This document shows positions 5,194 to 63,624 of a stretch of 64,000 nucleotides of DNA, piece by piece. Below the pieces are notes generated by a model that was not told where the DNA came from, searched no databases, and worked only from the letters and a program-made list of their open reading frames with translations. The position numbers were made by a program, and so were the translations under genes. Position 1 is the stretch's first letter; every line of letters begins with the position of its first letter. The stretch covers positions 96,001-160,000 of IMG/VR virus record IMGVR_UViG_3300028840_006907; one strand, written 5' to 3'. Source of the stretch: a virus.

Positions 5194-6192
5194 TTATTTA
5201 GATTTATTACTACCGGCGGCAATTTTCGAAACTTCTGAAATAGTCGCAGCGTCACCTTGTGCTTTCAGAGCTGCCTGTGCCATTGTAGCAACTTTTTCGT
5301 TGGCACTTAATACAGCTTCATTTGCTCTATTAATTTGTTTTTCCAGATCCACCACTTTAGCTTCAAGATTGGCAATAGTAGATTGAGCAATTTTAGCCTC
5401 AGCATCGGTATGGGATTTAACCATATTAGCCTGGAATTGCGCCGATTTCTTAGCTTTTTCCTCACCATTAGTAAAAGCTTCATCAATTTTATCTTGAATA
5501 CTCTTTTCAAGATTTTCAATCTTTCTAGAAAGTTCATCAATTTTACTATCTTTTTCATTGGCTATTTTTTCACGTTCACCGACTTCTTTTTCACGTTGAT
5601 CAAGGGATTTTGATTTCAACTCTAATTCATCAGCGACCTTATCAGCATCTTTACGACGGTTGCGTGTAGTATCATAGTTATATTGTTCTTCTTCACGAGC
5701 ACGTTCAATATCTTGTTTTTCTGTAATTTTTTCTGCTTCCTCATTGGTTTTCTTAATGGTGTCACGATAATATTCATCGGCTTCTTTCTTTTTCTCTTCA
5801 GCGTCAGCAATAATTTTCTTGGCCTCTTCATCTTTGTCAGCAATTAATTTTTCTTTAACCGCAGCCAGAGCAGCCAGGTCATTAGCACTAACTTCAATAC
5901 CATGAACTTCTTTTAATTCTGCTTTTTTAGCACCAATTGCAGTAACAAGATCATCGTATTCTTTTTTTAAGCCAACAACACCTTCGACAAGTTTTGTAAG
6001 AACAGTTTCAATAGTACTCGTGTCAATTCCAGAAGCATTTTTAACCGCACTTGATACAGCATCTTTGTTTGCTCTTTCAGTAGTACTGACAGGTTCATTT
6101 GCTTTTAATTTAGTTAATTCAGCTTTAGTTTCTTTATATGCATCCCATATTTCTTTTTTTGTGGAACCCATATATTTAATCTCTTCTGCCAT
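5194..6192 (-). CDS. coiled-coil protein (Lys/Glu-rich)
   Basis: 332 aa, low-complexity heptad-like K/E/A-rich sequence. Confidence 0.55.
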   Translation of the reverse strand: MAEEIKYMGSTKKEIWDAYKETKAELTKLKANEPVSTTERANKDAVSSAVKNASGIDTSTIETVLTKLVEGVVGLKKEYDDLVTAIGAKKAELKEVHGIEVSANDLAALAAVKEKLIADKDEEAKKIIADAEEKKKEADEYYRDTIKKTNEEAEKITEKQDIERAREEEQYNYDTTRNRRKDADKVADELELKSKSLDQREKEVGEREKIANEKDSKIDELSRKIENLEKSIQDKIDEAFTNGEEKAKKSAQFQANMVKSHTDAEAKIAQSTIANLEAKVVDLEKQINRANEAVLSANEKVATMAQAALKAQGDAATISEVSKIAAGSNKSK

Positions 6193-7495: not shown

Positions 7496-7852
7496 TTATG
7501 TTTTTTTGGCTGGAAAACCTAAATATGTAAGTTTCCAATCTAATTTTTGAGTCCATCCTTTTTCGATGGCTATATTTCTTGCTTCTTTTCTTGTCCTTGC
7601 TTGAATAACTTTAAAAAAATCTTTACGTGCAGGTACAGTAAAAAGAAAGAGAGGGGGATTTCCGTTAGGCATCTCCACTTTTGGAAGATGTTGATCTTTA
7701 GAGAAAATCCTCTCTATAGTTGTTACCCGATACCCACACTTTGGATTGGTACATAATCTCCTTCGCCTAGTGACATAAGGAGTTTTACAACGTGAATCTA
7801 TTACTTGAGTAGCACTCTCACATTGAGGGCATTTAAATTTTGTATGTGTCAT
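7496..7852 (-). CDS. NrdR-like zinc-ribbon protein (no ATP-cone)
   Basis: 118 aa; [15 protein letters not shown]...[21 protein letters not shown] resembles NrdR N-terminal zinc ribbon. Confidence 0.5.
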
Positions 7853-8726
7853 CTATACTTTGTTCCGCTATATTTAACAAATATTTTCCGTAATTATTCT
7901 TTTCCATTGGTAGAGCTAGGTTCATTAATTGCCCCTCATTTATATAACCATTTCGGTATGCTATCTCTTCAGGAGAAGAAATGATCAGTCCTTGTCTGGT
8001 TTGTATAGCTTCTACAAACTGGGAAGCTTGCATCATGGATTCATGTGTACCCGTATCAAGCCATGCTACTCCTCGGCCAAGAAGTTCTACTTTCAATAAT
8101 TCTTTTTCAAGATAAATCTGGTTAAGGCTAGTTATTTCAAGTTCTCCTCTGGGGGAGGGTTTTACCTGATGAGCGTATTCCACAACATTTTCATCATAGC
8201 AATATAAACCGGTAACAGCATAGTTTGATTTTGGATATTTGGGTTTCTCTTCAATACTAATGGCTCTTCCGTGTCCATTAAATTCTACAACTCCATATCT
8301 TTGGGGATCTGTGACTTGGTAACCGAAAACAGTAGCACCATGATTAAGTGTTACTGATTTTCGGAGTTTATCAATGAATTTATGACCCCAGAATATATTG
8401 TCTCCTAAAATGAGTGTCGTAGGTGAATCCATGGCAAAATCAGCCCCGACAAGAAAGGCTTGAGCCAGCCCTTCAGGTTTAGGTTGTATTACATAAGAGA
8501 AGGACAGCCCCAATTTATGGCCATCTCCGAGTAATCGTTTATACGACTCTATATCCTGGGGTGTTGATATTATGAGAATTTCTCTAATTCCTGCAAGCAT
8601 TAGTATTGATAGAGGATAATATATCATCGGCTTATCGTATATAGGAATTAACTGTTTGCTTATTCCTATAGTAGCTGGATAGAGCCTAGTCCCTGATCCT
8701 CCGGCAAGGATAATACCTTTTACCAT
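7833..8726 (-). CDS. rmlA: glucose-1-phosphate thymidylyltransferase
   Basis: 297 aa; [16 protein letters not shown], full-length RmlA-like. Confidence 0.9.
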
Positions 8727-9466: not shown

Positions 9467-9931
9467 TTAATCTTCCCAAACAGTGTATTTATTAACACCT
9501 TGCCAATTAGTCTTATCATAAATGATCACAGGTCTTAAGAGATCCGGATCCAGAGCCATGGGAATCAACCATCTTAAATTTGGAATGATATTATTTGGCA
9601 AGTTGTTAATATCTGCTATAATTACTTTCTCATCTGTGGGATTATGTTCGGGTAAAATCAGTGCTGCTTTATTCAAAGCATAGAAAAAATAAACTCTCCA
9701 TCCTGAACCATTTATGATAGCAAAGTTTTTAAAATCCGCGATAGTATAAGAAGTTTCTTCTTTAAATTCCCTGATCATTGCCTGTTCAGGAGACTCCATT
9801 GGTTCAATATGACCTCCTATTCCGTTTACTTTATTTATCTGCCATTCTGGTCGATTTTTTTCTATCAGCATTACTTTATTAGTATGCCCTAAACAATCAT
9901 TAAAAAGAAATCCGACTACCATTTCAGTCAT
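9467..9931 (-). CDS. NUDIX hydrolase
   Basis: 154 aa; Nudix box GIGGHIEPMESPEQAMIREFKEETSYT. Confidence 0.75.
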   Translation of the reverse strand: MTEMVVGFLFNDCLGHTNKVMLIEKNRPEWQINKVNGIGGHIEPMESPEQAMIREFKEETSYTIADFKNFAIINGSGWRVYFFYALNKAALILPEHNPTDEKVIIADINNLPNNIIPNLRWLIPMALDPDLLRPVIIYDKTNWQGVNKYTVWED

Positions 9932-11047: not shown

Positions 11048-12658
11048 TTAGTACAGAGGCTTTCCTGGTGCTGATCTCATACTCATAGGTCTTGGTATTT
11101 CTTCTTTCGCTGTTTCATCTTCTATAATAGCTATCTCTTCATTGAATTTATATGCTTTTAAATTCTTTTTAGACTGTTCGAAAAAGGTGATAGCTTTATC
11201 GATTTCATCTATAAGTGTTGATGTTTCCGGATTATCCATATTAATAAAGACCTTTTCAATAATACCGCATGTTAATTCTGCTTGTGTAAAATTATTGTTT
11301 AAGCATCGTGTTAGTATTTTTTCCAGATCTTTTTGTAGAGGAAATTCAATATCTTCGAATTTGGTATAGAAGCGTTTTAGTTTATTGAATTTGGACAGCA
11401 TCACGACATATGCCTCATCCCCGGTTCTGGGAGGTTTTATTTCAACTATTTCATCGAATCTCCCTGGTCGGTCAATGATAGTTTTATGGACTAATTCTGT
11501 GTCGTTAATGGTTATTAAAAGAACTATGTTAAGGTTATTATTTGTATCATCTATTTCATTTATAAAAGCTCCAACACGTTCGTTTTTTTCCTTAAATCCA
11601 AGAGCATCGAGATCTTCAATAATAACAAGAGCTGGTTGAATCATCCGAACAAATTGAAAGCACTTTTTTATTCGGTAAACTGTGCTGAATTCTTCAGGAC
11701 CTAGTTTGATAATAGTTATATCCGTAAGGATCTCTTCGAGTTTTTTTATGATAATAGATTTACCGGTACCCTGAAGCCCTATGAATCCGAAACCCCTTTT
11801 ACGATTATACTTTAAAATTTTCCTTATTACTTGTGCAAAAGCAGGAACATCATATTGGTTGATATTCTCTTCAACCTTCTGACGTGGTTTTGTTATAAGG
11901 CCATTTCTGAATTCCAATATATTGTCATGGGTATTAAAGGTGACAATGAAATCTTTTATTATGAGTTCTTCTAGATCGCGGATAATTTCTTCTGCTGAGT
12001 AAGATGAATTTAACGCATATTGTAAATCAAAGTAATATGAGGAAGATATCAACTTTGTGATCTTTAAATCGAACAATATTTTCTCATCATTAAATTCAAC
12101 CAGAATAAGGATCTCATTAAATTCGTGATCGAGTGAAACCTTTTCTAATGGTTTAAAAGAATGATCATAGTAACCTATTATTTTATATCCATTTGTTTTC
12201 GGGCTTTTAAATAGCCAGAATATGATGTCTTCATTTAAATATTTAGTCTCGTAATAACTGACATTATGGATATCCTCTATCTCTAAAAATTCTTTTAATT
12301 TCTTCTGCCTCTTATCATATTCAGAAAGTTCTTTTTGGTTTATTTTATCTATATATTTCTTGATTTTAATACCCATCTCCAGGCCATAGAGTGAAGCCGG
12401 TAAGGTATAGCGAAATAAGTTGAAGGTGTTTTTAAAAGTGAGTTTTCGATTACCATTGGTTAAGAATTTAAATCCTTTATCTAAATCTAAGATAACAGAT
12501 AAAGCTTTTGTGATATCTGCTGGACTTCCGTAATTTTCACCAATAAAATTGAATAAATGATATAGTTTGTGGTTTCTGGGAACCAGATTCATCAGTGATA
12601 TATCTGTTTTGGGATTTTCATCTCCTGCTGTCGTTACTGGCATATTTACTCGTGGCAT
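11048..12658 (-). CDS. AAA+ family ATPase
   Basis: 536 aa; Walker A GLQGTGKS, Walker B VIIEDLD. Confidence 0.7.
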   Translation of the reverse strand: MPRVNMPVTTAGDENPKTDISLMNLVPRNHKLYHLFNFIGENYGSPADITKALSVILDLDKGFKFLTNGNRKLTFKNTFNLFRYTLPASLYGLEMGIKIKKYIDKINQKELSEYDKRQKKLKEFLEIEDIHNVSYYETKYLNEDIIFWLFKSPKTNGYKIIGYYDHSFKPLEKVSLDHEFNEILILVEFNDEKILFDLKITKLISSSYYFDLQYALNSSYSAEEIIRDLEELIIKDFIVTFNTHDNILEFRNGLITKPRQKVEENINQYDVPAFAQVIRKILKYNRKRGFGFIGLQGTGKSIIIKKLEEILTDITIIKLGPEEFSTVYRIKKCFQFVRMIQPALVIIEDLDALGFKEKNERVGAFINEIDDTNNNLNIVLLITINDTELVHKTIIDRPGRFDEIVEIKPPRTGDEAYVVMLSKFNKLKRFYTKFEDIEFPLQKDLEKILTRCLNNNFTQAELTCGIIEKVFINMDNPETSTLIDEIDKAITFFEQSKKNLKAYKFNEEIAIIEDETAKEEIPRPMSMRSAPGKPLY

Positions 12659-14654: not shown

Positions 14655-15758
14655 ATGAAATTGTTTGTTACCGGTGGAGCAGGATTTATAGGAGCTAATT
14701 TCGTAAATTATTGGATTCAGAAACACCCCAATGACTATGTTACTGTTTTTGATAAATTAACGTATGCAGGGAATCTTAGTAGTTTATCAAAAGTAATGAA
14801 ACATCCTCATTTTAAATTCATTCGTGGGGATATTTTAGATTATAATTTATTATGCAAATCATTGAAAGAAGTAAGTACAGTTGTTCATTTCGCTGCGGAA
14901 TCCCATGTGGATCGGTCTCTTTCGGGATATGAAGCAGAGATGTTGTTTAATCGAACTAATTTGGATGGTACTATCACGCTTCTTCATGCTTGTTCTTTAA
15001 TGGATGTTGAGAGATTTCATCATGTCTCTACAGATGAGGTATATGGTGATTTAGGATATGATGATAAGCCATTTAATGAGAAATCACCCTATAATCCCCA
15101 TAACCCTTATGCTATAAGTAAAGCTGCGGCTGATTTTGCGGTTAGAGGATTTTCCCGTAGTCATGGGTTGGTATATACTATAAGTAATTGTACCAATAAT
15201 TATGGTAAATACCAAACCCCAGAAAAAATTATCCCTCGATCTATATGTCTTTTATTGCAGGATAAAAAGATTGAACTCTATACCGATGAACTAGGAAATC
15301 CAGGGACGAATATTCGAGATTGGATTTTTGTAGAAGATCATTGTAGGGCAATTGAGAAGATCCTTTTATATGGGAAAAATGGAGAAACTTATTGTATTGG
15401 TGGTAATTGTGAGCTAAAAAATATCGAATTGGTTAAAAAGATTTTAGCAATTATGTCAAAATTATTGGGTAAAACCTTTTTTGTTGAAAATAATGTCAAA
15501 CTAGTTAAAGACAGACCCGGGCATGATTTAAGATATGCTATGGATATTGAGAAGATTTCTTCTGAGTTGGACTGGATCCCTAAGCATTCATTTAATGAGG
15601 CATTTGAGTTAACCGTAAAGTGGTATTTATCAGAAGAAGGACAACAGTGGTTAAAATCAGTTGAAAAAACTTCTGGGGAAGTGAGAAAAGATCAGAGTAA
15701 AAAACATAAGAAGAGTTTTGATCTAAAGAATAAATTCAGCCATATTTTCAAACAGTAG
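14655..15758 (+). CDS. rmlB: dTDP-glucose 4,6-dehydratase
   Basis: 367 aa; Rossmann GGAGFIGANFV, full-length RmlB-like. Confidence 0.9.
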   Translation: MKLFVTGGAGFIGANFVNYWIQKHPNDYVTVFDKLTYAGNLSSLSKVMKHPHFKFIRGDILDYNLLCKSLKEVSTVVHFAAESHVDRSLSGYEAEMLFNRTNLDGTITLLHACSLMDVERFHHVSTDEVYGDLGYDDKPFNEKSPYNPHNPYAISKAAADFAVRGFSRSHGLVYTISNCTNNYGKYQTPEKIIPRSICLLLQDKKIELYTDELGNPGTNIRDWIFVEDHCRAIEKILLYGKNGETYCIGGNCELKNIELVKKILAIMSKLLGKTFFVENNVKLVKDRPGHDLRYAMDIEKISSELDWIPKHSFNEAFELTVKWYLSEEGQQWLKSVEKTSGEVRKDQSKKHKKSFDLKNKFSHIFKQ

Positions 15759-15760
15759 AA

Positions 15761-15797
15761 GTTGGCCTCTCCTATAAGAAGAGGCCAACCATTCTTT
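15761..15797 (+). terminator. rho-independent terminator
   Basis: Stem GTTGGCCTCT/AGAGGCCAAC directly after rmlB stop. Confidence 0.6.
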
Positions 15798-15872
15798 AAG
15801 TGGTATACACAACTTAAAGAGCGGTCCTTCATGTTAACGTAGGTAATTTTCTCTGTAAGTTGTTGATTTATA

Positions 15873-16282
15873 TGGAGGTGAGGAGAGTTGAACTCCTGTC
15901 CGCGAAGGTATCTTGAGTAAACCTCTACATGTTTAGTCTATGGTTTAAATCTTATTCATAATCACGTTCACAGACAAACTTAATTAAGAACCAGTCTCTA
16001 GTCTCATTCATTGGTCAAGACTCCTCAATGAACCAGAACCCGTTTGGCTATCCGGAATTAACAGGGTTCAGTTAAAACCGGATTTGTCGTTTTTTGTTTA
16101 AACGACGGCTTCTTCTGCTTGATGAATAGCAGCAAGGTTAAGTGCTGAAAACATCGCACAGAAGTTAACTGTATTAGTTTTTTCAGTTATTATTGAAATC
16201 GGCTTTTTTACGAGGCCAACCGATTAACCTCGACATGCAGTTTACATTTCAACTCATCACGTCGAAAACCAAGTACACCCCC
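15873..16282 (-). ncRNA. ssrA: tmRNA (transfer-messenger RNA, ssrA-like)
   Basis: Minus strand 5' GGGGGTGTACTTGGTTTTCGACG..., internal GGTTGGCCTCGTAAAAAAGCCG matching conserved tmRNA pseudoknot/resume region, 3' tRNA-like GGAGTTCAACTCTCCTCACCTCCA. Confidence 0.8.
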
Positions 16283-16382
16283 AGAATTATCAAAGAACTA
16301 TTAATAGTATAAACTATTTCAATGAAAATATCAAATGTTTTTATCTTTATAAGGCTGTTTTTTAATTAGACTAAATACTAAT

Positions 16383-17201
16383 TTAACTTGATAAAGTTAA
16401 GCTTGGCACTTTTTTAATAGTAGTCTCAGTTTTACTCTCTTCAAAACTGACACCAACAGTAGTCTCATAAAAATCATATAATTTCTCTAATTGTTCTTCC
16501 AATCTTTGATTTGATTCAATAGCTATTTCTCTCGCTTGTTTAAACATGTTATAAGCCATTTTTAAATAATCTTCTTTGTTTTCATCGTAAGCTTCACGAA
16601 TTTCTTCCCTTGATACTTCCATTTTATCACTACAATAAAAATTATCAAAAAACTGGCTAGTTAATTCATATAGTATGATAGCTTTTTTCTCAGCATATTC
16701 TTTAAATTCATTATCAGTCATTTTATCAATATGATTTTGTTTAAATGCTGTAATCATGAGTTCTTTGACATCTCTACACATAATTAAATCTACAAGAGTG
16801 GCAAATGCTTTGTAATCTTCATGAGATGTGACATTTTTACTATCTTTAATATGTGGCATAAGAAGTTTACCATAAGTATTAAGCATGGCTGAACGGGAGA
16901 TAATTAATTGTTCTTCAACAGCAGACATTTGAGCTTTAAGAGTTTCCTGATATTTGATATTGCTATATACAGACATCACTTCAATTGTTTTTACCACGGT
17001 TTTTTTGAAATCAATGTTATGAGGGCATTTTTCATGAGGGGATGTTTTTCCTCCTTTTTGTGTCCCCAGTGCGAATACGAAAGATTTACCTATTTTTATA
17101 TATGGTTTTCCAAGAAAAATGATGATTAGTAATGTGATTAGGATAATGAGCAACACAGTCATAAGTTGCCAAAACTCAAATTTACTTAGAAATTCGACCA
17201 T
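16383..17201 (-). CDS. membrane-anchored hypothetical protein
   Basis: 272 aa; N-terminal hydrophobic helix. Confidence 0.5.
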   Translation of the reverse strand: MVEFLSKFEFWQLMTVLLIILITLLIIIFLGKPYIKIGKSFVFALGTQKGGKTSPHEKCPHNIDFKKTVVKTIEVMSVYSNIKYQETLKAQMSAVEEQLIISRSAMLNTYGKLLMPHIKDSKNVTSHEDYKAFATLVDLIMCRDVKELMITAFKQNHIDKMTDNEFKEYAEKKAIILYELTSQFFDNFYCSDKMEVSREEIREAYDENKEDYLKMAYNMFKQAREIAIESNQRLEEQLEKLYDFYETTVGVSFEESKTETTIKKVPSLTLSS

Positions 17202-31068: not shown

Positions 31069-31175
31069 GGAGAGGTAGGTTTAATTGGTAAAATCAGTGC
31101 TTTGCACAGCACCTAAGCTAGCAAGGTGCCATTCCAGGGATGGATTTCGGGGTTCAAGTCCCCGTCTCTCTGCCA
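31069..31175 (+). other. atypical 107-nt tRNA-like element (canonical acceptor, D-arm and T-arm; aberrant anticodon region)
   Basis: GGAGAGG/TCTCTCT acceptor pairing, D-arm GGTTTAATTGGTAAAATC, T-arm CGGGGTTCAAGTCCCCG, CCA; middle holds GTGCTTTGCAC hairpin and GCTAGC palindrome. Confidence 0.35.
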
Positions 31176-51360: not shown

Positions 51361-51632
51361 TGGAGTGTAGCTCAGTGGCAGAGCGGGTGGCTGTCTTGGT
51401 TGGCAGCTCTTATAGGAAACTGTAAGATGAAAACTCGGTGAATTCAGGGAAACCTAAGTCTTAAACAGATATGGCAATCCTGAGCGAAGCCTTGAGAAAG
51501 GAACGTGCAGAGACTTATAGCGCCGAGCACCTAAGGTGAAAACTATGGTGATGAGATAGTCCAGGCCCTTGGGAAATCAGGGGAATTACTGTAACCACTT
51601 GGTCGGGGGTTCAAATCCCTCCACTCCAGCCA
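51361..51632 (+). tRNA. tRNA-Asn (anticodon GTT) interrupted by a group I intron
   Basis: Exon 1 51361-51394 (TGGAGTG...GGTGG-CTGT), exon 2 51592-51632 (TAA-CCACT...CACTCCAGCCA); spliced loop CTGTTAA; U1:A72 as in bacterial tRNA-Asn. Confidence 0.7.
51395..51591 (+). ncRNA. group I intron (~197 nt) in tRNA-Asn anticodon loop
   Basis: 5' exon ends in U; IGS GGCAG pairs with exon CUGU; R-like GCAGAGACTTATAGCG and S-like GAGATAGTCC elements; terminal G before exon 2. Confidence 0.65.
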
Positions 51633-51683
51633 ATTTTAAAGGGTCCTAGAGGAATTTACTTTAAAGAAAAGGAGAAAAATTAA

Positions 51684-53115: not shown

Positions 53116-53189
53116 GCGCCTGAGGCTCTGAGGTGAGCAACTTGGACTCTAAATCCAAGTTTTTCAGGGTTCGACTCCCTACAGGCGCA
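53116..53189 (+). tRNA. suppressor tRNA (anticodon CTA, reads UAG)
   Basis: Hand fold: acceptor GCGCCTG/CAGGCGC, anticodon stem TTGGA/TCCAA, loop CTCTAAA (U33, CUA, A37), T-loop TTCGACT. Confidence 0.65.
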
Positions 53190-55726: not shown

Positions 55727-56029
55727 TTATAATATTTCTTTCACTTTGTTTTTTAATGTATCACATTTAGGATCAAATTCTGGCTCTTTTCCATCGTTCC
55801 ATGGTGACTTAATCCAGAAAAAGCATGAGTCAACACGACCCACTCTGATGTCTCCATTCATGTAATCCCTTTGTCCTTTAAAATAAGCCCTCTCAATGGC
55901 TTTAAAGTCGGTAGTGGCCTCTATACTAATGTATTGTATTTTATTGCTCTCAGGGGCAAATAACCGCCATGAGATAAGGAATAGTAAGTAAGCTCCTATT
56001 AAAATTATAAAACTATTAATTTTAAACAT
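55727..56029 (-). CDS. membrane-anchored hypothetical protein
   Basis: 100 aa; N-terminal hydrophobic helix. Confidence 0.4.
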   Translation of the reverse strand: MFKINSFIILIGAYLLFLISWRLFAPESNKIQYISIEATTDFKAIERAYFKGQRDYMNGDIRVGRVDSCFFWIKSPWNDGKEPEFDPKCDTLKNKVKEIL

Positions 56030-56897
56030 ATAAATTGTTCTCTTGTATAATACCAGCTATTAATGTGAGAAAAGGAGACTCCCTAAGATACTTTTCCCGA
56101 TCCTCCTTTAATTCTTTTCTGATATCTGTAGAGGATATCTTTGGTATTTTATTACCAGCATCAAAAAACTTATGTGGTTCTTTCATATACCAATTCACAT
56201 TTGGATCGCGCTTTTCTCCTTGTCTAGATACTACAATGAATGGTATCAATTTTTCAAGGTGTTCATAGTTAACCCATTTATCAAATGTATTGGCATTATC
56301 AAGTCCAATGACATAATTGAATCGGTATTCGTTTTTGGCAAAATCCTCTTCCATAAATTTATTAAGGAAATAATATGTCTCTCCAGCTAGTTCGTGAACA
56401 ATTTCATAATCGCATACTTTCATTCTCTTATCTACCTGTACATATTCTCGACACATGGCTAGCCGTAGTGATGCAGGAGCCATTTCTTTTCCATATAAAT
56501 GTCTGTAGCAGGGGATGTACCAAACTTCATCGAATAACCCTGCTTCATCGAGTAAGAATTTTCCTATAGCAAGATGGCCAGGATGGATGGGATCAAAAGC
56601 ACCCCCGATGAGCGCAACTGATACTTTCCTGCCAAGTTTACGGTATAAAGATCGGCTATTAATTTTGGTGATGTTCATTTCAACCAATTCATTAAAATCA
56701 TAACCGGCTTCATTAATCCATTGTATCAGTGTACCAAGTAGATCGCTCGTTTCATCTTTTAATCCCGTCATGGTCCTGGCTCTTGTCAATTCAAATGCTT
56801 CTTTAAGGATATCATTCAATCTGATATCAGTAGGAGTATTTCCAAAAGCTTCTGAATACGTTTTATTGATATTATTTAATAAATCTGATAAATTCAT
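56022..56897 (-). CDS. nadD: nicotinate-nucleotide adenylyltransferase (NadD/NMNAT-like) with N-terminal MazG-like extension
   Basis: 291 aa; GGAFDPIHPGHL (HxGH nucleotidyltransferase) and ISSTDIR; N-terminal ~90 aa EAFELTRARTMTGLKDETSDLLGTLIQWINEAG resembles MazG/HisE-type NTP-PPase. Confidence 0.75.
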   Translation of the reverse strand: MNLSDLLNNINKTYSEAFGNTPTDIRLNDILKEAFELTRARTMTGLKDETSDLLGTLIQWINEAGYDFNELVEMNITKINSRSLYRKLGRKVSVALIGGAFDPIHPGHLAIGKFLLDEAGLFDEVWYIPCYRHLYGKEMAPASLRLAMCREYVQVDKRMKVCDYEIVHELAGETYYFLNKFMEEDFAKNEYRFNYVIGLDNANTFDKWVNYEHLEKLIPFIVVSRQGEKRDPNVNWYMKEPHKFFDAGNKIPKISSTDIRKELKEDREKYLRESPFLTLIAGIIQENNLYV

Positions 56898-57078
56898 TTT
56901 TCAATTTCTTTTTAGGTAAATTTTTTATTATACAATCAATACAAATATCTTTACTTTTCCACTGCCCATTTTCTATAGTTCTTAATACCACCCTATAACT
57001 TTTATCTCTAATAAAGAGCCTGCTATCGTCAATATCCATTTGTTTTTTGCATATATCACATATTGTAATTTTAGCCAT
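56872..57078 (-). CDS. small zinc-ribbon protein
   Basis: 68 aa; CDICKK...CIDCI. Confidence 0.4.
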   Translation of the reverse strand: MAKITICDICKKQMDIDDSRLFIRDKSYRVVLRTIENGQWKSKDICIDCIIKNLPKKKLKNEFIRFIK

Positions 57079-57095
57079 TTTGTTTTAAATTACAT

Positions 57096-57887
57096 TTATA
57101 TATCTAAATGGCAAATACGAGGCATTTCCATTTTATGAGCATTCTTTTCATGTCGTTCTAGATATAATTCAAGAACTTTCATTTTTCTTTTTTCTATTGT
57201 TAACATAGATTTCATCGCTTCAAGTCCTTTGATAGTTTTTAAACCACCTAATTTTTTACAAAAATCCATAGCCCATTCCAATTCAGAATATGTAGCTCCA
57301 ATCTGATCTTCATCAGTTCTGCCATCTTCCCATAATCCATCAGTAGGTTTTGCTGTTAAAATATCTGAGTTCACTCCAAGATAGGCTCCCATACCATATA
57401 CCTCAGATTTGACTAGCTCTCCTATTGGACTTATATCAACACCACCATCACCGAATTTTGTAAAGAAACCAATTCCGAAATCTTCAACCATATTCCCAGT
57501 ACCAACAACATAATAATTATGGGTATTTGCGATAGCATAAAGAGCTACCATTCGAAGACGGGATCTGGTATTAACCATGGCAAATTCATTGTAATAATTA
57601 CTATGATTAAAATTATTAAAGACAACTGAAAGATCTTCCGTATGACTGGTAACATTGGTATAGTCTTTTTTTAATTTTTCAACATGTGCTTCTGCTCTGG
57701 GAAGAATATCTTGATTTATTGGCATATGGGCACATATAACAGGTTTATAAGTTCTGGCACATAAATTTGATACAACTGCTGAGTCAATTCCACCTGAAAC
57801 TCCAACTACACAGCCATCTACATGGGATTCCTTCATGTCTCTAATAATCCAATTTACAATATGATCTGAGACTTTTTTATAGTCCAA
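57096..57887 (-). CDS. nadE: NAD+ synthetase (NH3-dependent type)
   Basis: 263 aa; PP-loop GVSGGIDSAV. Confidence 0.8.
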   Translation of the reverse strand: MDYKKVSDHIVNWIIRDMKESHVDGCVVGVSGGIDSAVVSNLCARTYKPVICAHMPINQDILPRAEAHVEKLKKDYTNVTSHTEDLSVVFNNFNHSNYYNEFAMVNTRSRLRMVALYAIANTHNYYVVGTGNMVEDFGIGFFTKFGDGGVDISPIGELVKSEVYGMGAYLGVNSDILTAKPTDGLWEDGRTDEDQIGATYSELEWAMDFCKKLGGLKTIKGLEAMKSMLTIEKRKMKVLELYLERHEKNAHKMEMPRICHLDI

Positions 57888-57899
57888 ATTTATCCTCCT

Positions 57900-59624
57900 T
57901 TAATTCATGGCAATTGAGTATATTTTTTTATTGTCAACAAATAACACTTTCATATGTTCATGGTATAATCGCATAGATACATTAATCGGTGTATTCGTAA
58001 TATCCTTACTTCCTTTATTATTTTTAAATAGAGACATTTTATCATTATCGACAGAGATGCACATTCCAGTAGGTAATGTAATAAAATTAACTGGATGGTA
58101 ATCAATCATATCTTCCTGTTTAATATCATAGCTAGTATGGGTTTTATCAAAACAAATTGTATATTTAAAATAACTTCCCTGTTTTTCTGTGACCACTATA
58201 CAGATTCCTTTATCATACCGGGCATCAATGATTCTTTGGCCGTCCAATTCTTTTACATAAGTATTAATACATTTCCCTCTTTCGAAAGGAATAGCTAATC
58301 GTATCTTTGTGAAATCATCCTGTACAATAACACCTCGGAAAGACTTATATGATTTGCTTATTCTACATACAGTTTTAGTCGTATGAATAACTCTCTGGAA
58401 TTTTTCAAAATGATTCTCTATCAATCTTCCATTATTAATGGTGTAAATATACCCATTATACCCCATTATGTCTTCAGCTTTGATGTCGGATATTGATTTA
58501 TTATTTAAATCAAAGAACTCAGCTTTTAAATTCTTGAAATAAACTATTAAGGGATCCGCTCCATAAGCTTCACACATGCCTACTATGGTTGATTTTAAAG
58601 GTTTATGGAACTTAACCACTTTATCTTTATTCTGGTCATATATGGCTTTAGAAGTTATCACAAAGCGTTTATCATTAAAGAAGAAGATATTCCGAATCGG
58701 TTCATTTACTTCGAATACTTTTTCTACTATGAAATCACCTCTACTAGTTATAGTTCTGGCAACTGCTGCTACAACCACGACCTCGTCCGGTAATGGCGGG
58801 ATGGATCTCTCATTATTTTTAAATTCTGATACATACCATTCAAAATGTTTTTTAGGGATCACAGAATAATCTTGGCACATGGCCGGTAATGGCTTTGCTC
58901 CTTTATCAAAATTTGAGACTCCATCATCCATCCTTTTAATCCATTGTTTCGGTTTATAATCGATATGTCTACTTTTGTAAGGGTGAATACCCAGATACAT
59001 TTGATAAGTTACGACACCCCAGGAGAACCAGTCAGAGTACTCAGTAAATTGAGCATTCTTAACCTGTCGATCTCGAACACTATCCATAAGAGCATCTGCT
59101 GGGAAGCTTTTTGTTTTCCAGGCATCCACATCAATGTGATAAACGGTCTTTAAATCACCGCTAAGAAGGAAATTCATCTCATTATAATCAACTACTAGGA
59201 AGCCATTTTTATGGATGTATTGTAGGGCTTTCTGCATTTTAAGAACTAGGTCAGCTATATCTGTTGGACTTAAATGTTTATTGTCTCTGAAAGTCTTAGT
59301 AAATACTTGGCAGAGAAATTCAACTCCATCAACATATCTCATTGTAAACCCAATGGGTGTGTGGTTCCTCACTTCATATAAAGGTTCTATGGGTGACAGG
59401 ATATCATCTCGTTTTAATTCGGTCAATTCGTGTATTTTTGCTTCTGGTATCATATTTTTAGTATCATGATAAATTTTATATGCAATCCCATTTAGATAAA
59501 AAACTGTTCCAAAACCACCAGAAGCTTTATAATTATCATCAGTCAAAGTAACAATTTCTTTTGTTGTCTGAACTTTGAATGACTTCTTTATTATCGGGTT
59601 CATTTTTGTTTTCGGTAAAATCAT
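57900..59624 (-). CDS. protein-kinase-like (Ser/Thr kinase fold) protein with C-terminal extension
   Basis: 574 aa; Gly-rich loop SGGFGTVF, AYKIY Lys, catalytic-loop-like VVDYNEMNFLL, DVDAW. Confidence 0.6.
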   Translation of the reverse strand: MILPKTKMNPIIKKSFKVQTTKEIVTLTDDNYKASGGFGTVFYLNGIAYKIYHDTKNMIPEAKIHELTELKRDDILSPIEPLYEVRNHTPIGFTMRYVDGVEFLCQVFTKTFRDNKHLSPTDIADLVLKMQKALQYIHKNGFLVVDYNEMNFLLSGDLKTVYHIDVDAWKTKSFPADALMDSVRDRQVKNAQFTEYSDWFSWGVVTYQMYLGIHPYKSRHIDYKPKQWIKRMDDGVSNFDKGAKPLPAMCQDYSVIPKKHFEWYVSEFKNNERSIPPLPDEVVVVAAVARTITSRGDFIVEKVFEVNEPIRNIFFFNDKRFVITSKAIYDQNKDKVVKFHKPLKSTIVGMCEAYGADPLIVYFKNLKAEFFDLNNKSISDIKAEDIMGYNGYIYTINNGRLIENHFEKFQRVIHTTKTVCRISKSYKSFRGVIVQDDFTKIRLAIPFERGKCINTYVKELDGQRIIDARYDKGICIVVTEKQGSYFKYTICFDKTHTSYDIKQEDMIDYHPVNFITLPTGMCISVDNDKMSLFKNNKGSKDITNTPINVSMRLYHEHMKVLFVDNKKIYSIAMN

Positions 59625-60487
59625 TAATATTCCTCATTTAAATAAATAGTAGCAGTACCAACGTCATCATAATGATGCCAATTATGTTTTTTAACTTTCT
59701 TACCAAAAAAGATCATGCGCTTTTTTACAAATTCACCGGTAGTGTTTTTAAATCCAATAAATTCGGGTATTGTAATATCTAATCCTATATCTTTTTTATA
59801 ACTATCTCTGTAGGTTGATATACCATCTGTACATATTGTAACAGATAAGAGTTTATCCTTCATAATATTGGAAATTTCTTCGGAATAGATTGTATCAAAA
59901 GGTAATGAAGATTCAAGAGGATTTTCTAGCCCCTTTTCTCCTGACAAAGTAATAATTTCCCGAAAGCATTGAGGATTATCTTCACCTTTAATAGCACAAT
60001 TTTTTAAATAGACTGTTCTATCACTTATTAGATAAAATGGGGCATTTAAGGAATAATCTATTTTCATTATTAGCTGATAATTACCGCCATCTTCTTTTCT
60101 ATAATTAGCTGTAATGACACCATCACCCCATGCAAATACCAATACTCTTGAAGACAATCTTATAGTTATTAATAATGTGGCTTCCAAAGCCTTAGGAGTA
60201 ATGGGGTATATCTTTCTTATTTCATCAGCTCTTTTGTGAATGCCGTTTCCGAGATAAAATGAGAGTTCTTTCAGATTTAATCGTTCGAATAATCCAGTTT
60301 GGATACAAAATTCAATATTATATTTAGCAACATGACATAATATTTGAGCACCTACTTCAGAATGATCCGCAGAAGAACATCCATCTGCAACGATGCCATA
60401 CTCAATTCCTTTAAAAGAGCCACTTAATGCATAGTCTTGACAGACTAAATGAGTGCTTCCTTTTTCATAATATGAGTCACAGCTCAC
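59624..60487 (-). CDS. PP2C-family (PPM) protein phosphatase-like
   Basis: 287 aa; GIVADGCSS, FAWGDGV, ICTDGIS motifs. Confidence 0.6.
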   Translation of the reverse strand: MSCDSYYEKGSTHLVCQDYALSGSFKGIEYGIVADGCSSADHSEVGAQILCHVAKYNIEFCIQTGLFERLNLKELSFYLGNGIHKRADEIRKIYPITPKALEATLLITIRLSSRVLVFAWGDGVITANYRKEDGGNYQLIMKIDYSLNAPFYLISDRTVYLKNCAIKGEDNPQCFREIITLSGEKGLENPLESSLPFDTIYSEEISNIMKDKLLSVTICTDGISTYRDSYKKDIGLDITIPEFIGFKNTTGEFVKKRMIFFGKKVKKHNWHHYDDVGTATIYLNEEY

Positions 60488-60546
60488 AATTACCTCCTTT
60501 TAGTAAGCACAGAAGGCTCCATTACAGAGCCTTCCTGCAAAAATTC

Positions 60547-61314
60547 CTAGTTAAATTTGAAATCTTTAATTGGTTGTGAAGGTTGTCCGGTGCCGAGGGC
60601 ATCTGACTGTGAGCTAACACTCTGACTCATAAACTGGGCTAGTTTAGCTAATTTTGATTCAGAAACATCACCCATTGATATATATTCATCAAGTCCAGCT
60701 TCTTCTTTGAAATCCGTAAGTAATTTCTTTAAATCTTTTCTACCATCATTAACACCAATAAGAATGGTACGAACTGATTCCATCGCTTCATCTTCATCAT
60801 TCATACTGTCTAATGTTTCTTTTATCATTTGTGGAGTAACACCGAATTCGGGGCAATTATCTTCACCATCAGTAATTATGAAAACCATTCCATTAGCATT
60901 TACGATCCTTTCAGAATTATAGAGCTTATTTATATAATCTCTCATGACGTCCAAACCACAAAGAGTCGCTTGAAAAAGATTTGTAGCATTCGCTGGAAAG
61001 ATCACATCGTCGTAATTATCTAGTTCAATATCACTCAGAAGCATCCATCCATGAATTTCCTGGATACCTCCATTATTAAAAGCGATAACACGTAATAAAA
61101 GATTCAAAGCTCGTGGGGAGCCTTTACATGACCCTACACATGCTTTTATCATTTTTTCCAGACCTGTTTTAAACCCTTTCACTGAATAGGTTTTATCAAC
61201 GATTATAGTGACTGCTGTATATTCTGTAGCTCCAAGTCTATCAACTTTAACTTTTGTATAATCGAATTTATGGAGAGATACATCGGAATCACTTACATTC
61301 ATAAACTTAGGCAT
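60547..61314 (-). CDS. vWA-domain protein (TerY-like)
   Basis: 255 aa; VFIITDGEDN and degenerate MIDAS IIVDKTYS. Confidence 0.55.
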   Translation of the reverse strand: MPKFMNVSDSDVSLHKFDYTKVKVDRLGATEYTAVTIIVDKTYSVKGFKTGLEKMIKACVGSCKGSPRALNLLLRVIAFNNGGIQEIHGWMLLSDIELDNYDDVIFPANATNLFQATLCGLDVMRDYINKLYNSERIVNANGMVFIITDGEDNCPEFGVTPQMIKETLDSMNDEDEAMESVRTILIGVNDGRKDLKKLLTDFKEEAGLDEYISMGDVSESKLAKLAQFMSQSVSSQSDALGTGQPSQPIKDFKFN

Positions 61315-61326
61315 AAGTTATCCTTT

Positions 61327-62154
61327 CTAGAAAAAGTCCACTGTTGTAGCAACCTGCATACCATAATCATCTGCAGTATACTTGTTAATAAAGTCTTCAC
61401 CATTTTGCTCACATCCAGGTACACTTGAAGTAGCATCTTTGAGTAAAACGAATTTTTTAACTTGGTCGGCACCTAAATATTCAAAGATATCTCTGAATGT
61501 AAAGGAATAGCAGTGTGAAAGAGCTTCACCAGCTCCAAGAATTATATCATATTCCTTGATTACATTGATAAAATCTTCGTTTAATCTGGTTCCTTCATCC
61601 TCTGGGTCAATCACGTCAGCCACTAATGCTGAATAGTGCTCAGTGAAAGGATTACTCCCTTTGGTGGTACGGGGAGCAATACCGTAATAAGTGGCTTCCC
61701 ATTCAGAGACCGCATTGAGAAATTCAGGCTCTAACATTTGTCCATCACTTCCGATAATACAATGTTCAGGCCATATCATTAATTGATATCTGTTATTAGC
61801 CTTTAATTGTTTCAAGTAGTCAACATAACGCTCTTGAAAGCCTGGATTGAAAGCACGGTATTCTCCATCTAAGACCATTTCTAAAGTTAAGTACGTAGGT
61901 ACAGTATTCCCTTTGTGAAGGAAAATAGGTGTGGGGTGGTTTCCCTCTCTGTCAATCCAAGATCGGCTGTGAGCCACGTGGAGCTTATAATGTGAGTCCA
62001 TCGTGATTTGGATTTCATCAATATCACCCCCGAATTTTCGAATCATTTTTGAAAGTCTTGCCATGTCTTCAACGGCACCAGGAACAGTGAGAGTTCCCCT
62101 TGTAAAGTCTTTTTGAGGGTCAATTACCACAAGGCACACTTTAGGTTTTTCCAT
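61327..62154 (-). CDS. pncA: nicotinamidase (isochorismatase-family)
   Basis: 275 aa; VVIDPQKDF, WPEHCIIGSDGQ, RTTKG, catalytic-Cys context GAGEALSHCY. Confidence 0.8.
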   Translation of the reverse strand: MEKPKVCLVVIDPQKDFTRGTLTVPGAVEDMARLSKMIRKFGGDIDEIQITMDSHYKLHVAHSRSWIDREGNHPTPIFLHKGNTVPTYLTLEMVLDGEYRAFNPGFQERYVDYLKQLKANNRYQLMIWPEHCIIGSDGQMLEPEFLNAVSEWEATYYGIAPRTTKGSNPFTEHYSALVADVIDPEDEGTRLNEDFINVIKEYDIILGAGEALSHCYSFTFRDIFEYLGADQVKKFVLLKDATSSVPGCEQNGEDFINKYTADDYGMQVATTVDFF

Positions 62155-62201
62155 ATCTTATCCTCCTTTAAGATTTAGTATATGTTATCTGTTATTTATA
62201 A

Positions 62202-62444
62202 TTAAAGCAACCCTTTTATATCAGCCCTTTCAATATCAGTTCTGTTAAAAAAGTTCTTATTTCCTTTTTTTCTAGGTTCTGGTAATACCCCGCATTTTAT
62301 ACGACGGTATATAGTTTGTTTGGATATATTATATTCAGTACAAATATCTCTCAAACTAATTTCATCTCTATGATGTTTGTAAAGTATTTTAGCTACTTCT
62401 TCTGCTATAGCTTTTGCTAATTTTTTAATATCTGCATCATCCAT
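62202..62444 (-). CDS. small HTH DNA-binding protein (AlpA/MerR-like)
   Basis: 80 aa; ISKQTIYRRIKCGVLPEP. Confidence 0.5.
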   Translation of the reverse strand: MDDADIKKLAKAIAEEVAKILYKHHRDEISLRDICTEYNISKQTIYRRIKCGVLPEPRKKGNKNFFNRTDIERADIKGLL

Positions 62445-62451
62445 AATATAT

Positions 62452-63624
62452 TTATATCATTAAATCTTTTTTACAATGTACAATCATATCTTTATTACCA
62501 GTGTTCTTTCCTTCGTCATCTGATAACTTGACTGTGTCAATCCATCTGCCATTTATCATACAGGCTATCATTTTAATAACAATATTCAATGGTATGACAT
62601 CTACGTCATTTGTAAACCAGGTTCCAATTCCATATGCATCTCTGATCAAATTGATGCAAGCTTTATGGATAGATTTCACTTTATCTATACTGTTAATAGC
62701 ATCAGAGAATACCAATGTTTTAAGCATCGGATCAATTCTTAATTTTTGGTATTTACTTACTGATTTAGTAATGAAATCAAAAGGTGAACCACTATCTTGC
62801 CGGAGACCATCAAAAAGTTTCGCAAAAAATGTATTGAATGTTTTTAGGAATACATCAGTAGTAAATGTATCTGGAAGAGCAATTCCAAGATCTCCTTGAA
62901 ATATATCAGACCATATTTTCAGAGCCATCTCATTAGCCATACGAAATCCATACATAGCTGCATGGAATTGATACCATTCATGAGCTTTTGTTCCTATGGG
63001 AGTTAAATTGTATTTCTTTGCTAGATAAACATTACTAGGTCCAGAGAAACAACTACCTAGATATTGCTTTGCATCACGAACTACTTCATCATGATTCTTT
63101 AGAGAGTATCTTCTACGAGTACCAAATTCAGCGATGGGTACTCCGATTTCTTTAAGAGCCATAAATTTCAGACGATTTCTTTCTTTACGTTCCTTACGAA
63201 TCATCTTTGTCTTACCAGTTTTCTCAAAATAAAGTTGACTGATAGTAGCCATCAAAGGTACTTCCCAAAGAATCTTTCGGTACCAGGGTCCTATATACTT
63301 ACAATGAAAATTAGATCCTTCTTGTGTTAATATTATCTCATCTGGGTTATACCGGTACCCACTAAGAAGATCGATATAGGCAGGATTTAAATAATAACAT
63401 TTTTCTTTAAGAAAGTCTATATCATCTTTGCTTAATGTAAAACCACGAAATGTGTCTATAATTCTCCTTAATTCATCGGCAAAGCCATCTGGAAACTCTC
63501 TACCATCACGGTTTATAAATTGGTACATAGCGAGAGCATTGGGGTATTTCTGACATGCCCCACACTGCATAGTGAATTTATACACATCATTATCGAGTAT
63601 ACCAGCTACGTACTCATTCTCCAT
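62452..63624 (-). CDS. pncB: nicotinate phosphoribosyltransferase
   Basis: 390 aa; N-terminal LDNDVYKFTM signature of NAPRTase family. Confidence 0.8.
   Translation of the reverse strand: MENEYVAGILDNDVYKFTMQCGACQKYPNALAMYQFINRDGREFPDGFADELRRIIDTFRGFTLSKDDIDFLKEKCYYLNPAYIDLLSGYRYNPDEIILTQEGSNFHCKYIGPWYRKILWEVPLMATISQLYFEKTGKTKMIRKERKERNRLKFMALKEIGVPIAEFGTRRRYSLKNHDEVVRDAKQYLGSCFSGPSNVYLAKKYNLTPIGTKAHEWYQFHAAMYGFRMANEMALKIWSDIFQGDLGIALPDTFTTDVFLKTFNTFFAKLFDGLRQDSGSPFDFITKSVSKYQKLRIDPMLKTLVFSDAINSIDKVKSIHKACINLIRDAYGIGTWFTNDVDVIPLNIVIKMIACMINGRWIDTVKLSDDEGKNTGNKDMIVHCKKDLMI

Follow-up and report, generated by a model that had tools for sequence, protein, structure and literature searches.

A complete tmRNA gene with a long tag ending in AVV on a probable huge-phage contig

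The DNA analysed here, to which we refer as the window, is a stretch of 64,000 nt within the 388,651-bp JGI contig Ga0180437_10000019 (metagenome 3300017963). Its minus strand carries a one-piece tmRNA (ssrA) gene at 15873-16282. A preliminary description of the sequence had proposed a tmRNA in this position, and ARAGORN calls one with the same coordinates, taking nt 99-185 of the gene as the coding part. The Rfam model RF00023, searched with Infernal, matches 15870..16282 (-) with a score of 159.9 bits, where the gathering score is 47 (E = 3.7e-63), and the alignment extends over model positions 1-374 of 374, and is thus not truncated. This is far beyond chance, so that the covariance-model search named in that description as a check gives no ground for refuting the tmRNA. 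The minus strand reads GGGGGTGTACTTGGTTTTCGACG ... GGTTGGCCTCGTAAAAAAGCCG ... GGAGTTCAACTCTCCTCACCTCCA, and the three strings that had been quoted from it are all present where they were placed. The G+C content of the gene is 40%, compared with 31-34% in its surroundings, and the RNA is more stable than all of 100 dinucleotide shuffles (folding z = -4.87). We number the RNA such that nt p corresponds to window coordinate 16283-p. The features of the locus are as follows.

15873-16282, minus strand: one-piece tmRNA (ssrA) gene of 410 nt, the 3′-most base being the discriminator A (ARAGORN and RF00023).
16276-16282, minus strand: 5′ strand of the acceptor stem, GGGGGUG (nt 1-7), forming 7 pairs with CACCUCC at 15874-15880 (nt 403-409).
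16198-16232, minus strand: pseudoknot PK1 (nt 51-85); all positions pair when checked.
16098-16184, minus strand: tag reading frame EKTNTVNFCAMFSALNLAAIHQAEEAVV of 28 sense codons, with resume codon GAA at 16184-16182 and stop codon TAA at 16100-16098.
16115-16132, minus strand: hairpin H5a, CUGCU-AUUCAUCA-AGCAG (nt 151-168), directly 3′ of the codons for ...LAA.
16086-16106, minus strand: hairpin H5b, GUCGUUU-AAACAAA-AAACGAC (nt 177-197), with 7 of 7 Watson-Crick pairs.
15936-16083, minus strand: pseudoknots PK2 (nt 200-247), PK3 (nt 250-283) and PK4 (nt 293-347), nested stems as aligned by the Rfam model.
15874-15897, minus strand: T-arm AGGAG-UUCAACU-CUCCU (nt 386-402) followed by the 3′ strand of the acceptor stem (nt 403-409), from Rfam and the pair check.
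16306-16334, minus strand: candidate sigma-70-like promoter, TTGATA-17-TATACT, a 10/12 match to the consensus.
15760-15790, minus strand: terminator-like hairpin of 14 bp, located 83 nt beyond the 3′ end of the tmRNA, by consensus match only.

Each module of the tmRNA has been verified by explicit listing of its base pairs. The tRNA-Ala-like domain is complete, comprising the 7-bp acceptor stem with a G3:U70 wobble pair, the T-arm and the discriminator base A410. G3:U70 is the established identity element for alanine. The terminal CCA is not encoded, the bases that follow the discriminator being TAT (UAU), and a CCA-adding enzyme would therefore be required. An encoded CCA is also missing from about 9 of the 34 tRNA genes in the window.

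PK1 lies just 5′ of the resume codon. Its stem 1, CGAGG/CCUCG (51-55/68-72), interleaves with stem 2, AUCGGUU/AGCCGAU (59-65/79-85). Interleaved second stems were found by hand for PK2-PK4 (GAACCC/GGGUUC, AGUCU/AGACU and GUCUGUG/CAUAGAC), so that these three pseudoknots can be drawn with stems of 5-10 bp between the tag and the 3′ strand of helix 2. Hairpin H5b is present in both the minimum free energy and the centroid folds, immediately 5′ of PK2, and the UAA stop codon of the tag lies at the edge of its stem and loop, which is the canonical helix-5 position. The locus is thus a complete tmRNA with all the parts of the one-piece form.

The resume codon GAA (nt 99-101) falls on the resume codon of the model in the Rfam alignment and is also the choice of ARAGORN. 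It is preceded by AUAACU, placing U at -5 and A at -4 and -3, and this UAA-N-N|G context is identical in every related phage tmRNA that we have recovered (about 30). In the E. coli tmRNA positions -4 and -5 are important for setting the frame. An alternative frame starting from CUG at nt 97 was rejected; it lacks the initial G, carries an A at -5 in place of U and would run into PK2. The open frame is 84 nt long and is followed by UAA, so the gene contains an in-frame tag with a stop codon, 28 codons plus UAA by ARAGORN, in a region where the preliminary description had found no obvious frame. Its candidate tag fragment ...AAIHQAEEAVV is the C terminus of this tag. Together these data establish the identity and completeness of the gene, its reading frame and its stop.

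Including the alanine from the charged tmRNA, the peptide is (A)EKTNTVNFCAMFSALNLAAIHQAEEAVV, i.e. AEKTNTVNFCAMFSALNLAAIHQAEEAVV, with 29 residues. The tag ends in ...AEEAVV, and it lacks the ClpXP-type [LV]AA-COOH end, the sequence LAA being internal only. That the tag ends atypically had been recognized at the outset, and rightly so, the terminus being AVV in place of the usual LAA. Within the frame ALNLAA is encoded at 16145-16128, followed by H5a and then by nine more codons (IHQAEEAVV). H5a occupies the canonical position of the helix-5 loop carrying the stop, yet its loop contains no stop codon. The arrangement reads like an ancestral ...LAA-stop from which the stop has been lost and nine codons gained, and as such the tag could be drifting. 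In contrast with this appearance of a relic and its extension, the true stop sits in a well-formed hairpin at the canonical position. A full-text search of the literature with the tag strings found no paper.

The candidate promoter is located about 17 nt upstream of the mature 5′ end, within the 100-nt gap that follows the ORF at 16383-17201. Four promoter-like sites were found in the region compared with 2.0 expected, all identified by match to the consensus only. On the other side of the gene, the terminator-like hairpin abuts the convergent epimerase gene (14655-15758, +).

We gathered relatives of the tmRNA using two exact seeds, the 24-mer spanning T-arm and acceptor and an 18-mer from H2/PK1, GCATGTCGAGGTTAATCG. 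About 40 tmRNAs were recovered with them, on viral contigs of IMG/VR and in JGI metagenomes. When the 18-mer was compared with 185,579 bacterial species genomes, it was found in one true tmRNA, from a Verrucomicrobiota MAG with the tag ANEEPELALAA, together with five chance hits; the scan gave no clue to the host of the phage. The distribution of the 18-mer points to a mainly phage-borne tmRNA lineage, within the limited reach of exact-seed searching. The window tmRNA is about 50% identical overall to all of those retrieved, sharing with them either the tRNA-like end or PK1 only. Other approaches returned no closer relative. The window tmRNA matched none of 50,697 deposited phage genomes in a blastn search, and exact-pattern scans of IMG/VR (5′ end, window-type PK1 and 3′ strand of helix 2) gave nothing or chance hits in protein-coding sequence. 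The ORF upstream of the gene has a single homologue among 5.8 billion proteins, with 77% identity, and on the 2.1-kb contig of that homologue an unrelated ORF occupies the place expected for the tmRNA. Searching IMG/VR with the same ORF for related loci found nothing.

The acceptor stems of the relatives include compensatory changes, GGGCGUG/CACGUCC and GGGGAUG/CAUCUCC, in which G4-C69 is replaced by C-G and G5-C68 by A-U, while G3:U70 is invariant. The locus L021 (Ga0180433_10000659, 5631-6001 (-)) is a tmRNA with the exact PK1 hairpin stem of the window. It lies on a phage contig with 17 tRNA genes, from a sample whose accession neighbours that of the window. Its tag is short and canonical, (T)NDESYRLAA with a TAG stop, and its helix 5 is GCUGCU-UAGAAU-AGUAGC with the stop in the loop. 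In L053 the PK1 hairpin is nearly that of the window, with one A fewer in the loop, and the tag is ANNDYALAA.

A larger group of these tmRNAs, from uncultured phages, forms a family with acidic tags of 32-35 aa ending L[LM]AA, the genes being 431-462 nt long and the contigs reaching 211 kb (L002, L004, L005, L009, L010, L012-L018, L020, L022, L024, L026, L027, L029-L033, L035-L037, L040, L041, L043-L048 and L051). Read from the homologous resume position, examples of these tags are AEDNTDSILAEAEYIFNNSDEFLGGVEEEYLMAA and AEDFTSDLLAEAESIFNNADEVLASYADEEMLLAA. The family resembles the window tmRNA in its nearly identical 5′ acceptor and D-region, the 18-mer, the UAA-N-N context and the possession of a long tag, and in L002, L004, L005, L009 and L010 the T-arm/acceptor 24-mer is identical to that of the window. 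It differs in the overall identity of about 50%, the canonical L[LM]AA end and a tag of unrelated sequence. The set contains 26 distinct nucleotide versions encoding 16 distinct peptides. Over 35 codons the numbers of variable sites at codon positions 1, 2 and 3 are 14, 11 and 31, the Nei-Gojobori dN/dS is about 0.18, and insertions and deletions occur in whole codons only. These patterns of variation show that the long tags of this sister family are under purifying selection, and hence that the phage tmRNA lineage is translated. The result applies to the sister family, and the tag of the window with its nine-codon extension lies outside it. Shuffle tests of the window tag against the Bxz1 tag or the long-tag family gave p values of 0.26-0.51, and homology was rejected as not significant; the same applies to the AEEA shared near the C terminus.

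ARAGORN reports the long-tag genes with a 9-aa tag ADEEMLLAA, or misses them. The full-length extractable genes that it missed begin GGGC, GGGGA or GGGGGTGAATTA, rather than GGGGGTGTAC, and some members have unusual T-loops such as GGGCAGCAC. The long tags of phages have probably been mis-annotated systematically as a result of this handling.

A motif resembling TTGAAAWTTT (TTGATAATTCT, window 16283-16293 (-)) directly adjoins the mature 5′ end of the window tmRNA, and occurs at the equivalent position in nearly all of the recovered phage tmRNAs (L002-L051). It could be a processing or promoter element. It was rejected as a general promoter of the phage, since the window has 37 matches where 37.6 are expected, and hence no enrichment.

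The RNA may be compared with known systems. Like canonical ssrA (RF00023), it has a tRNA-like domain, PK1, an mRNA-like domain, helix 5 and PK2-4. It differs in having 28 codons ending in VV where the canonical tag ends in AA, in a resume codon that is GAA rather than GCN, and in the CCA that is not encoded. The tag of E. coli is ANDENYALAA. Mollicute tmRNAs have tags of about 27 aa without an LAA end, as in the window, and in mycoplasmas these are reportedly read by Lon and not by ClpXP. In the tmRNA database the commonest tag length is 10 aa (PMC11915505).

Phage tmRNA genes have been known since the genome of mycobacteriophage Bxz1 (cluster C1). The tmRNA of this phage, 435 nt by ARAGORN on NC_004687, is a one-piece form in a large tRNA array that includes a tRNA with a CTA anticodon; in these respects it is like the tmRNA of the window. 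In Bxz1 the CTA tRNA is situated at the start of the array. Its tag too is long (25 codons, ATDTDATVTDAEIEAFFAEEAAALV), with a hydrophobic end that is not AA (ALV) following an acidic patch. It comes from another host lineage with a different G+C content and from a genome of 156 kb compared with at least 389 kb, the two tags have no significant similarity (shuffle p = 0.51), and the internal LAA is a feature of the window. Bxz1-like phages, phage G and DS6A are listed as bearing tmRNA (PMC4131195), and both tmRNA and SmpB have been described in huge phages by Al-Shayeb et al. 2020 (PMC7162821). The occurrence of tmRNAs in large phages, to which the preliminary description had alluded, is thus well documented (PMC7162821, PMC4131195, PMC12484599). 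Phage G has a tmRNA of 308 nt with a 13-aa tag, AKLNITNNELQVA (PMC12484599). As in the window, phage G and the huge phages combine genomes of more than 200 kb with a tmRNA beside many tRNAs and other translation genes (PMC7162821, PMC12484599, PMC4131195); the papers on them do not analyse the tags. An [LV]AA end is typical of tmRNAs and does not define them, as the Bxz1 (ALV) and phage G (QVA) tags demonstrate (PMC12484599). Thus both a phage tmRNA and a long phage tag that does not end in AA have precedents, and what is unusual here is only the tag length together with the AVV end.

We consider it likely that the gene encodes a functional phage-borne tmRNA. This is supported by the intact modules, the full-length match to RF00023, the conserved resume context and the promoter-like and terminator-like sites on either side. 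It is supported further by the position of the gene among 34 tRNA genes, the same arrangement as in Bxz1, and by the relatives, with their compensatory acceptor changes around an invariant G3:U70 and their selected long tags.

For the activity of the RNA, we infer expression, charging, an SmpB partner, a benefit to the phage and the fate of the tagged proteins as follows. Transcription would probably start at the gene's own promoter in the 100-nt gap, and RNase P would remove a 5′ leader of about 17 nt. At the 3′ end, trimming would be followed by the addition of CCA by a CCA-adding enzyme, since no CCA is encoded. Host alanyl-tRNA synthetase would charge the tmRNA with alanine via G3:U70. No SmpB gene was found in the 64-kb window (tblastn with E. 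coli and B. subtilis query sequences; best E = 0.31), and the partner would therefore probably be that of the host or be encoded elsewhere in the phage genome. ArfB, Pth and ClpP were likewise not found in the 64-kb window. Where ribosomes stall on broken or non-stop mRNAs in the infected cell, the tmRNA with SmpB would enter them and move translation onto the GAA resume codon, so that AEKTNTVNFCAMFSALNLAAIHQAEEAVV is added to the nascent chain. Termination at UAA would then free the ribosome for reuse. The phage would probably benefit by keeping ribosomes available if the host supply of ssrA fails or if mRNA cleavage is heavy. Recognition by ClpX requires a terminal LAA with a free carboxylate, as established by E. 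coli biochemistry, and canonical recognition of a tag with an internal LAA and an AVV-COOH end is unlikely. The rescued proteins would thus probably not be handled by ClpXP like those tagged with ...LAA. The outcome could be rescue without rapid degradation by ClpXP, or the involvement of another protease.

The possibility to be weighed most carefully against a functional tmRNA is that of a decaying or repurposed tmRNA captured from a host, in which the stop after ALNLAA was lost and nine arbitrary codons are read through. Such an RNA might rescue ribosomes without providing a working degron, or might mainly soak up SmpB and so disturb trans-translation in the host, for which the TLD-only RNA of phage DS6A provides a precedent of SmpB interference (PMC4131195, PMC11915505). 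The internal ALNLAA followed by the CUGCU-loop-AGCAG hairpin, positionally homologous to the stop-bearing helix 5 of the relatives, is what this explanation would predict, and a C-terminal AVV is rare among tags. In addition, the first 19-20 residues of the tag weakly resemble a Bacillus-type tag, with a shuffle p of about 0.01 that is uncorrected for 10 comparisons. Against this, all the modules required for rescue are intact with scores far above threshold, and the true stop has the canonical location, within a perfect hairpin of 7 bp that immediately precedes PK2. Moreover the long phage tags of the related lineage are demonstrably selected, and Bxz1 has a long tag ending in ALV. On balance we think that decay is unlikely, and prefer a functional tmRNA.

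The preliminary description had also taken the gene to be encoded by a phage. The evidence for this is strong, though indirect, and it comes from the surrounding sequence. In addition to the 388,651-bp contig itself, there are the 34 tRNA genes found by ARAGORN and an intron-split tRNA-Asn, and the tmRNA is flanked on either side by tRNA genes and ORFs of phage families. A neighbouring protein is also encoded on contigs of up to 469,617 bp. The protein-coding genes include a homing endonuclease, a sigma-like factor and a lysis-type amidase. Six ORFs match PHROG families that are known only from phages, several of them of unknown function. When the window ORFs were compared by tblastn with 50,697 phage genomes, the matches were in jumbo and huge phages only, comprising uncultured phages of 462-735 kb, Bacillus phage G, Ralstonia RsoM2USA and Tenacibaculum PTm1; for the ORF at 5194-6192 the sole homologue in the phage database is in Bacillus phage G. 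From this evidence we conclude that the window is probably part of a huge-phage genome, with the caveat that no virion or packaging gene (capsid, portal or terminase) occurs within its 64 kb.

That caveat is what a megaplasmid or tiny symbiont genome carrying a non-viral extra copy of ssrA would lead us to expect, and some large putative plasmids do carry similar sets of translation genes (Al-Shayeb et al., PMC7162821). In addition, a search of a copy of IMG/VR did not turn up the contig. Such an origin is hard to reconcile with the six ORFs in phage-only PHROG families and with the fact that huge and jumbo phages supply the best matches, or the only ones, in the phage collection. The lysis-type amidase, the homing endonuclease and the dense scatter of tRNA genes also argue against it, as does a scan of about 40 ORFs in which neither ribosomal genes nor other core genes of bacteria were seen, and we regard it as very improbable. 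An even weaker case can be made for a bacterial host ssrA, brought into the contig at a prophage or island integration site or by chimeric assembly. In its favour are the frequent use of tmRNA genes as integration sites (PMC11915505) and the higher G+C content of the gene. Against it, composition and gene content are uniform over tens of kilobases to either side of the tmRNA, which is flanked by tRNA genes and ORFs of phage families, and the same neighbouring protein occurs on six contigs of 0.2-1 Mb. The tRNA-like end or PK1 agrees with phage tmRNAs, and the 18-mer was found in a true tmRNA in just one of 185,579 bacterial species genomes. A higher G+C content is normal for structured RNAs and is seen also in the tRNA-rich segments of the window. 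We find this explanation barely credible.

Taken alone, the window gene is one more tmRNA among the translation genes of huge phages, as would be expected. The comparison set brings out a widespread group of tmRNAs in uncultured phages, in which tags of 32-35 aa show conservation of the encoded protein sequence. The peculiarity of the tag and the mis-annotated long-tag family merit follow-up. If the RNA is active, proteins tagged without an LAA end should behave unlike those tagged by the host.

We might speculate further that large phages customize trans-translation, using long lineage-specific tags to give the rescued chains a fate chosen by the phage instead of the 'rescue and destroy' of the host. 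We put this forward tentatively, and with more doubt than confidence. The idea may cover the window tmRNA, the family with 32-35-aa tags and Bxz1. One possibility would be escape from host ClpXP, by virtue of an AVV end without the LAA-COOH degron. Another possibility would be delivery to a factor specified by the phage, such as the AAA+ ATPase encoded at 11048-12658, 3.2 kb away. For at least one lineage, the sister family with its dN/dS of about 0.18, the pattern of substitution shows that the extra tag residues matter.

The gene at 11048-12658 (-) encodes a protein of 536 aa containing a classic-clade AAA+ module, which is closest to the p97/Cdc48 D2, PAN and FtsH ATPase domains. No family was detectable for its N-terminal half (about 270 aa), and the protein has no homologue in deposited phage genomes. 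We see no link between this gene and the tag beyond the distance of 3.2 kb.

Several tRNA genes of the window have features of their own. A gene for tRNA-Asn(GUU) at 51361-51637 (+) is divided into exons at 51361-51394 and 51592-51637 by an intron at 51395-51591. This is a group I intron of 197 nt (Rfam RF00028, 92.8 bits) inserted in the anticodon loop after U35. The unspliced gene is invisible to both ARAGORN and the Rfam tRNA model, and the joined exons give a clean 75-nt tRNA-Asn in ARAGORN with an encoded CCA. A tRNA-like sequence of 104-107 nt at 31069-31175 (+) scores 30.1 bits with the Rfam tRNA model, and is called as tRNA-Cys(GCA) with an 11-nt insert by ARAGORN with the intron option only; possibly it represents a tRNA whose variable arm is very long, or one bearing a small insert. 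At 53116-53189 (+) there is a tRNA with a CTA anticodon, an amber suppressor to which ARAGORN gives the label 'Pyl'. Recoding of TAG or TGA, an idea arising from this tRNA, was rejected; there is no sign of it in the stop-to-stop frame statistics of the window, and the stop of the tag is TAA.

Lastly, a number of other protein-coding genes were noted in the window. NUDIX hydrolases are encoded at 1243-1881 and 9467-9931. Two genes are related to nucleotide sugars, one like a glucose-1-phosphate nucleotidyltransferase at 7833-8726 (-) and the other like an NDP-sugar 4,6-dehydratase/epimerase at 14655-15758 (+). The latter converges on the tmRNA, and the terminator hairpin is common to both. An NAD-related cluster at 56022-63624 (-) comprises an NMNAT-like cytidylyltransferase (56022-56897), NAD synthase (57096-57887) and nicotinate phosphoribosyltransferase (62452-63624), and interleaved within it are a Ser/Thr protein kinase (57900-59624) and a PP2C phosphatase (59624-60487).
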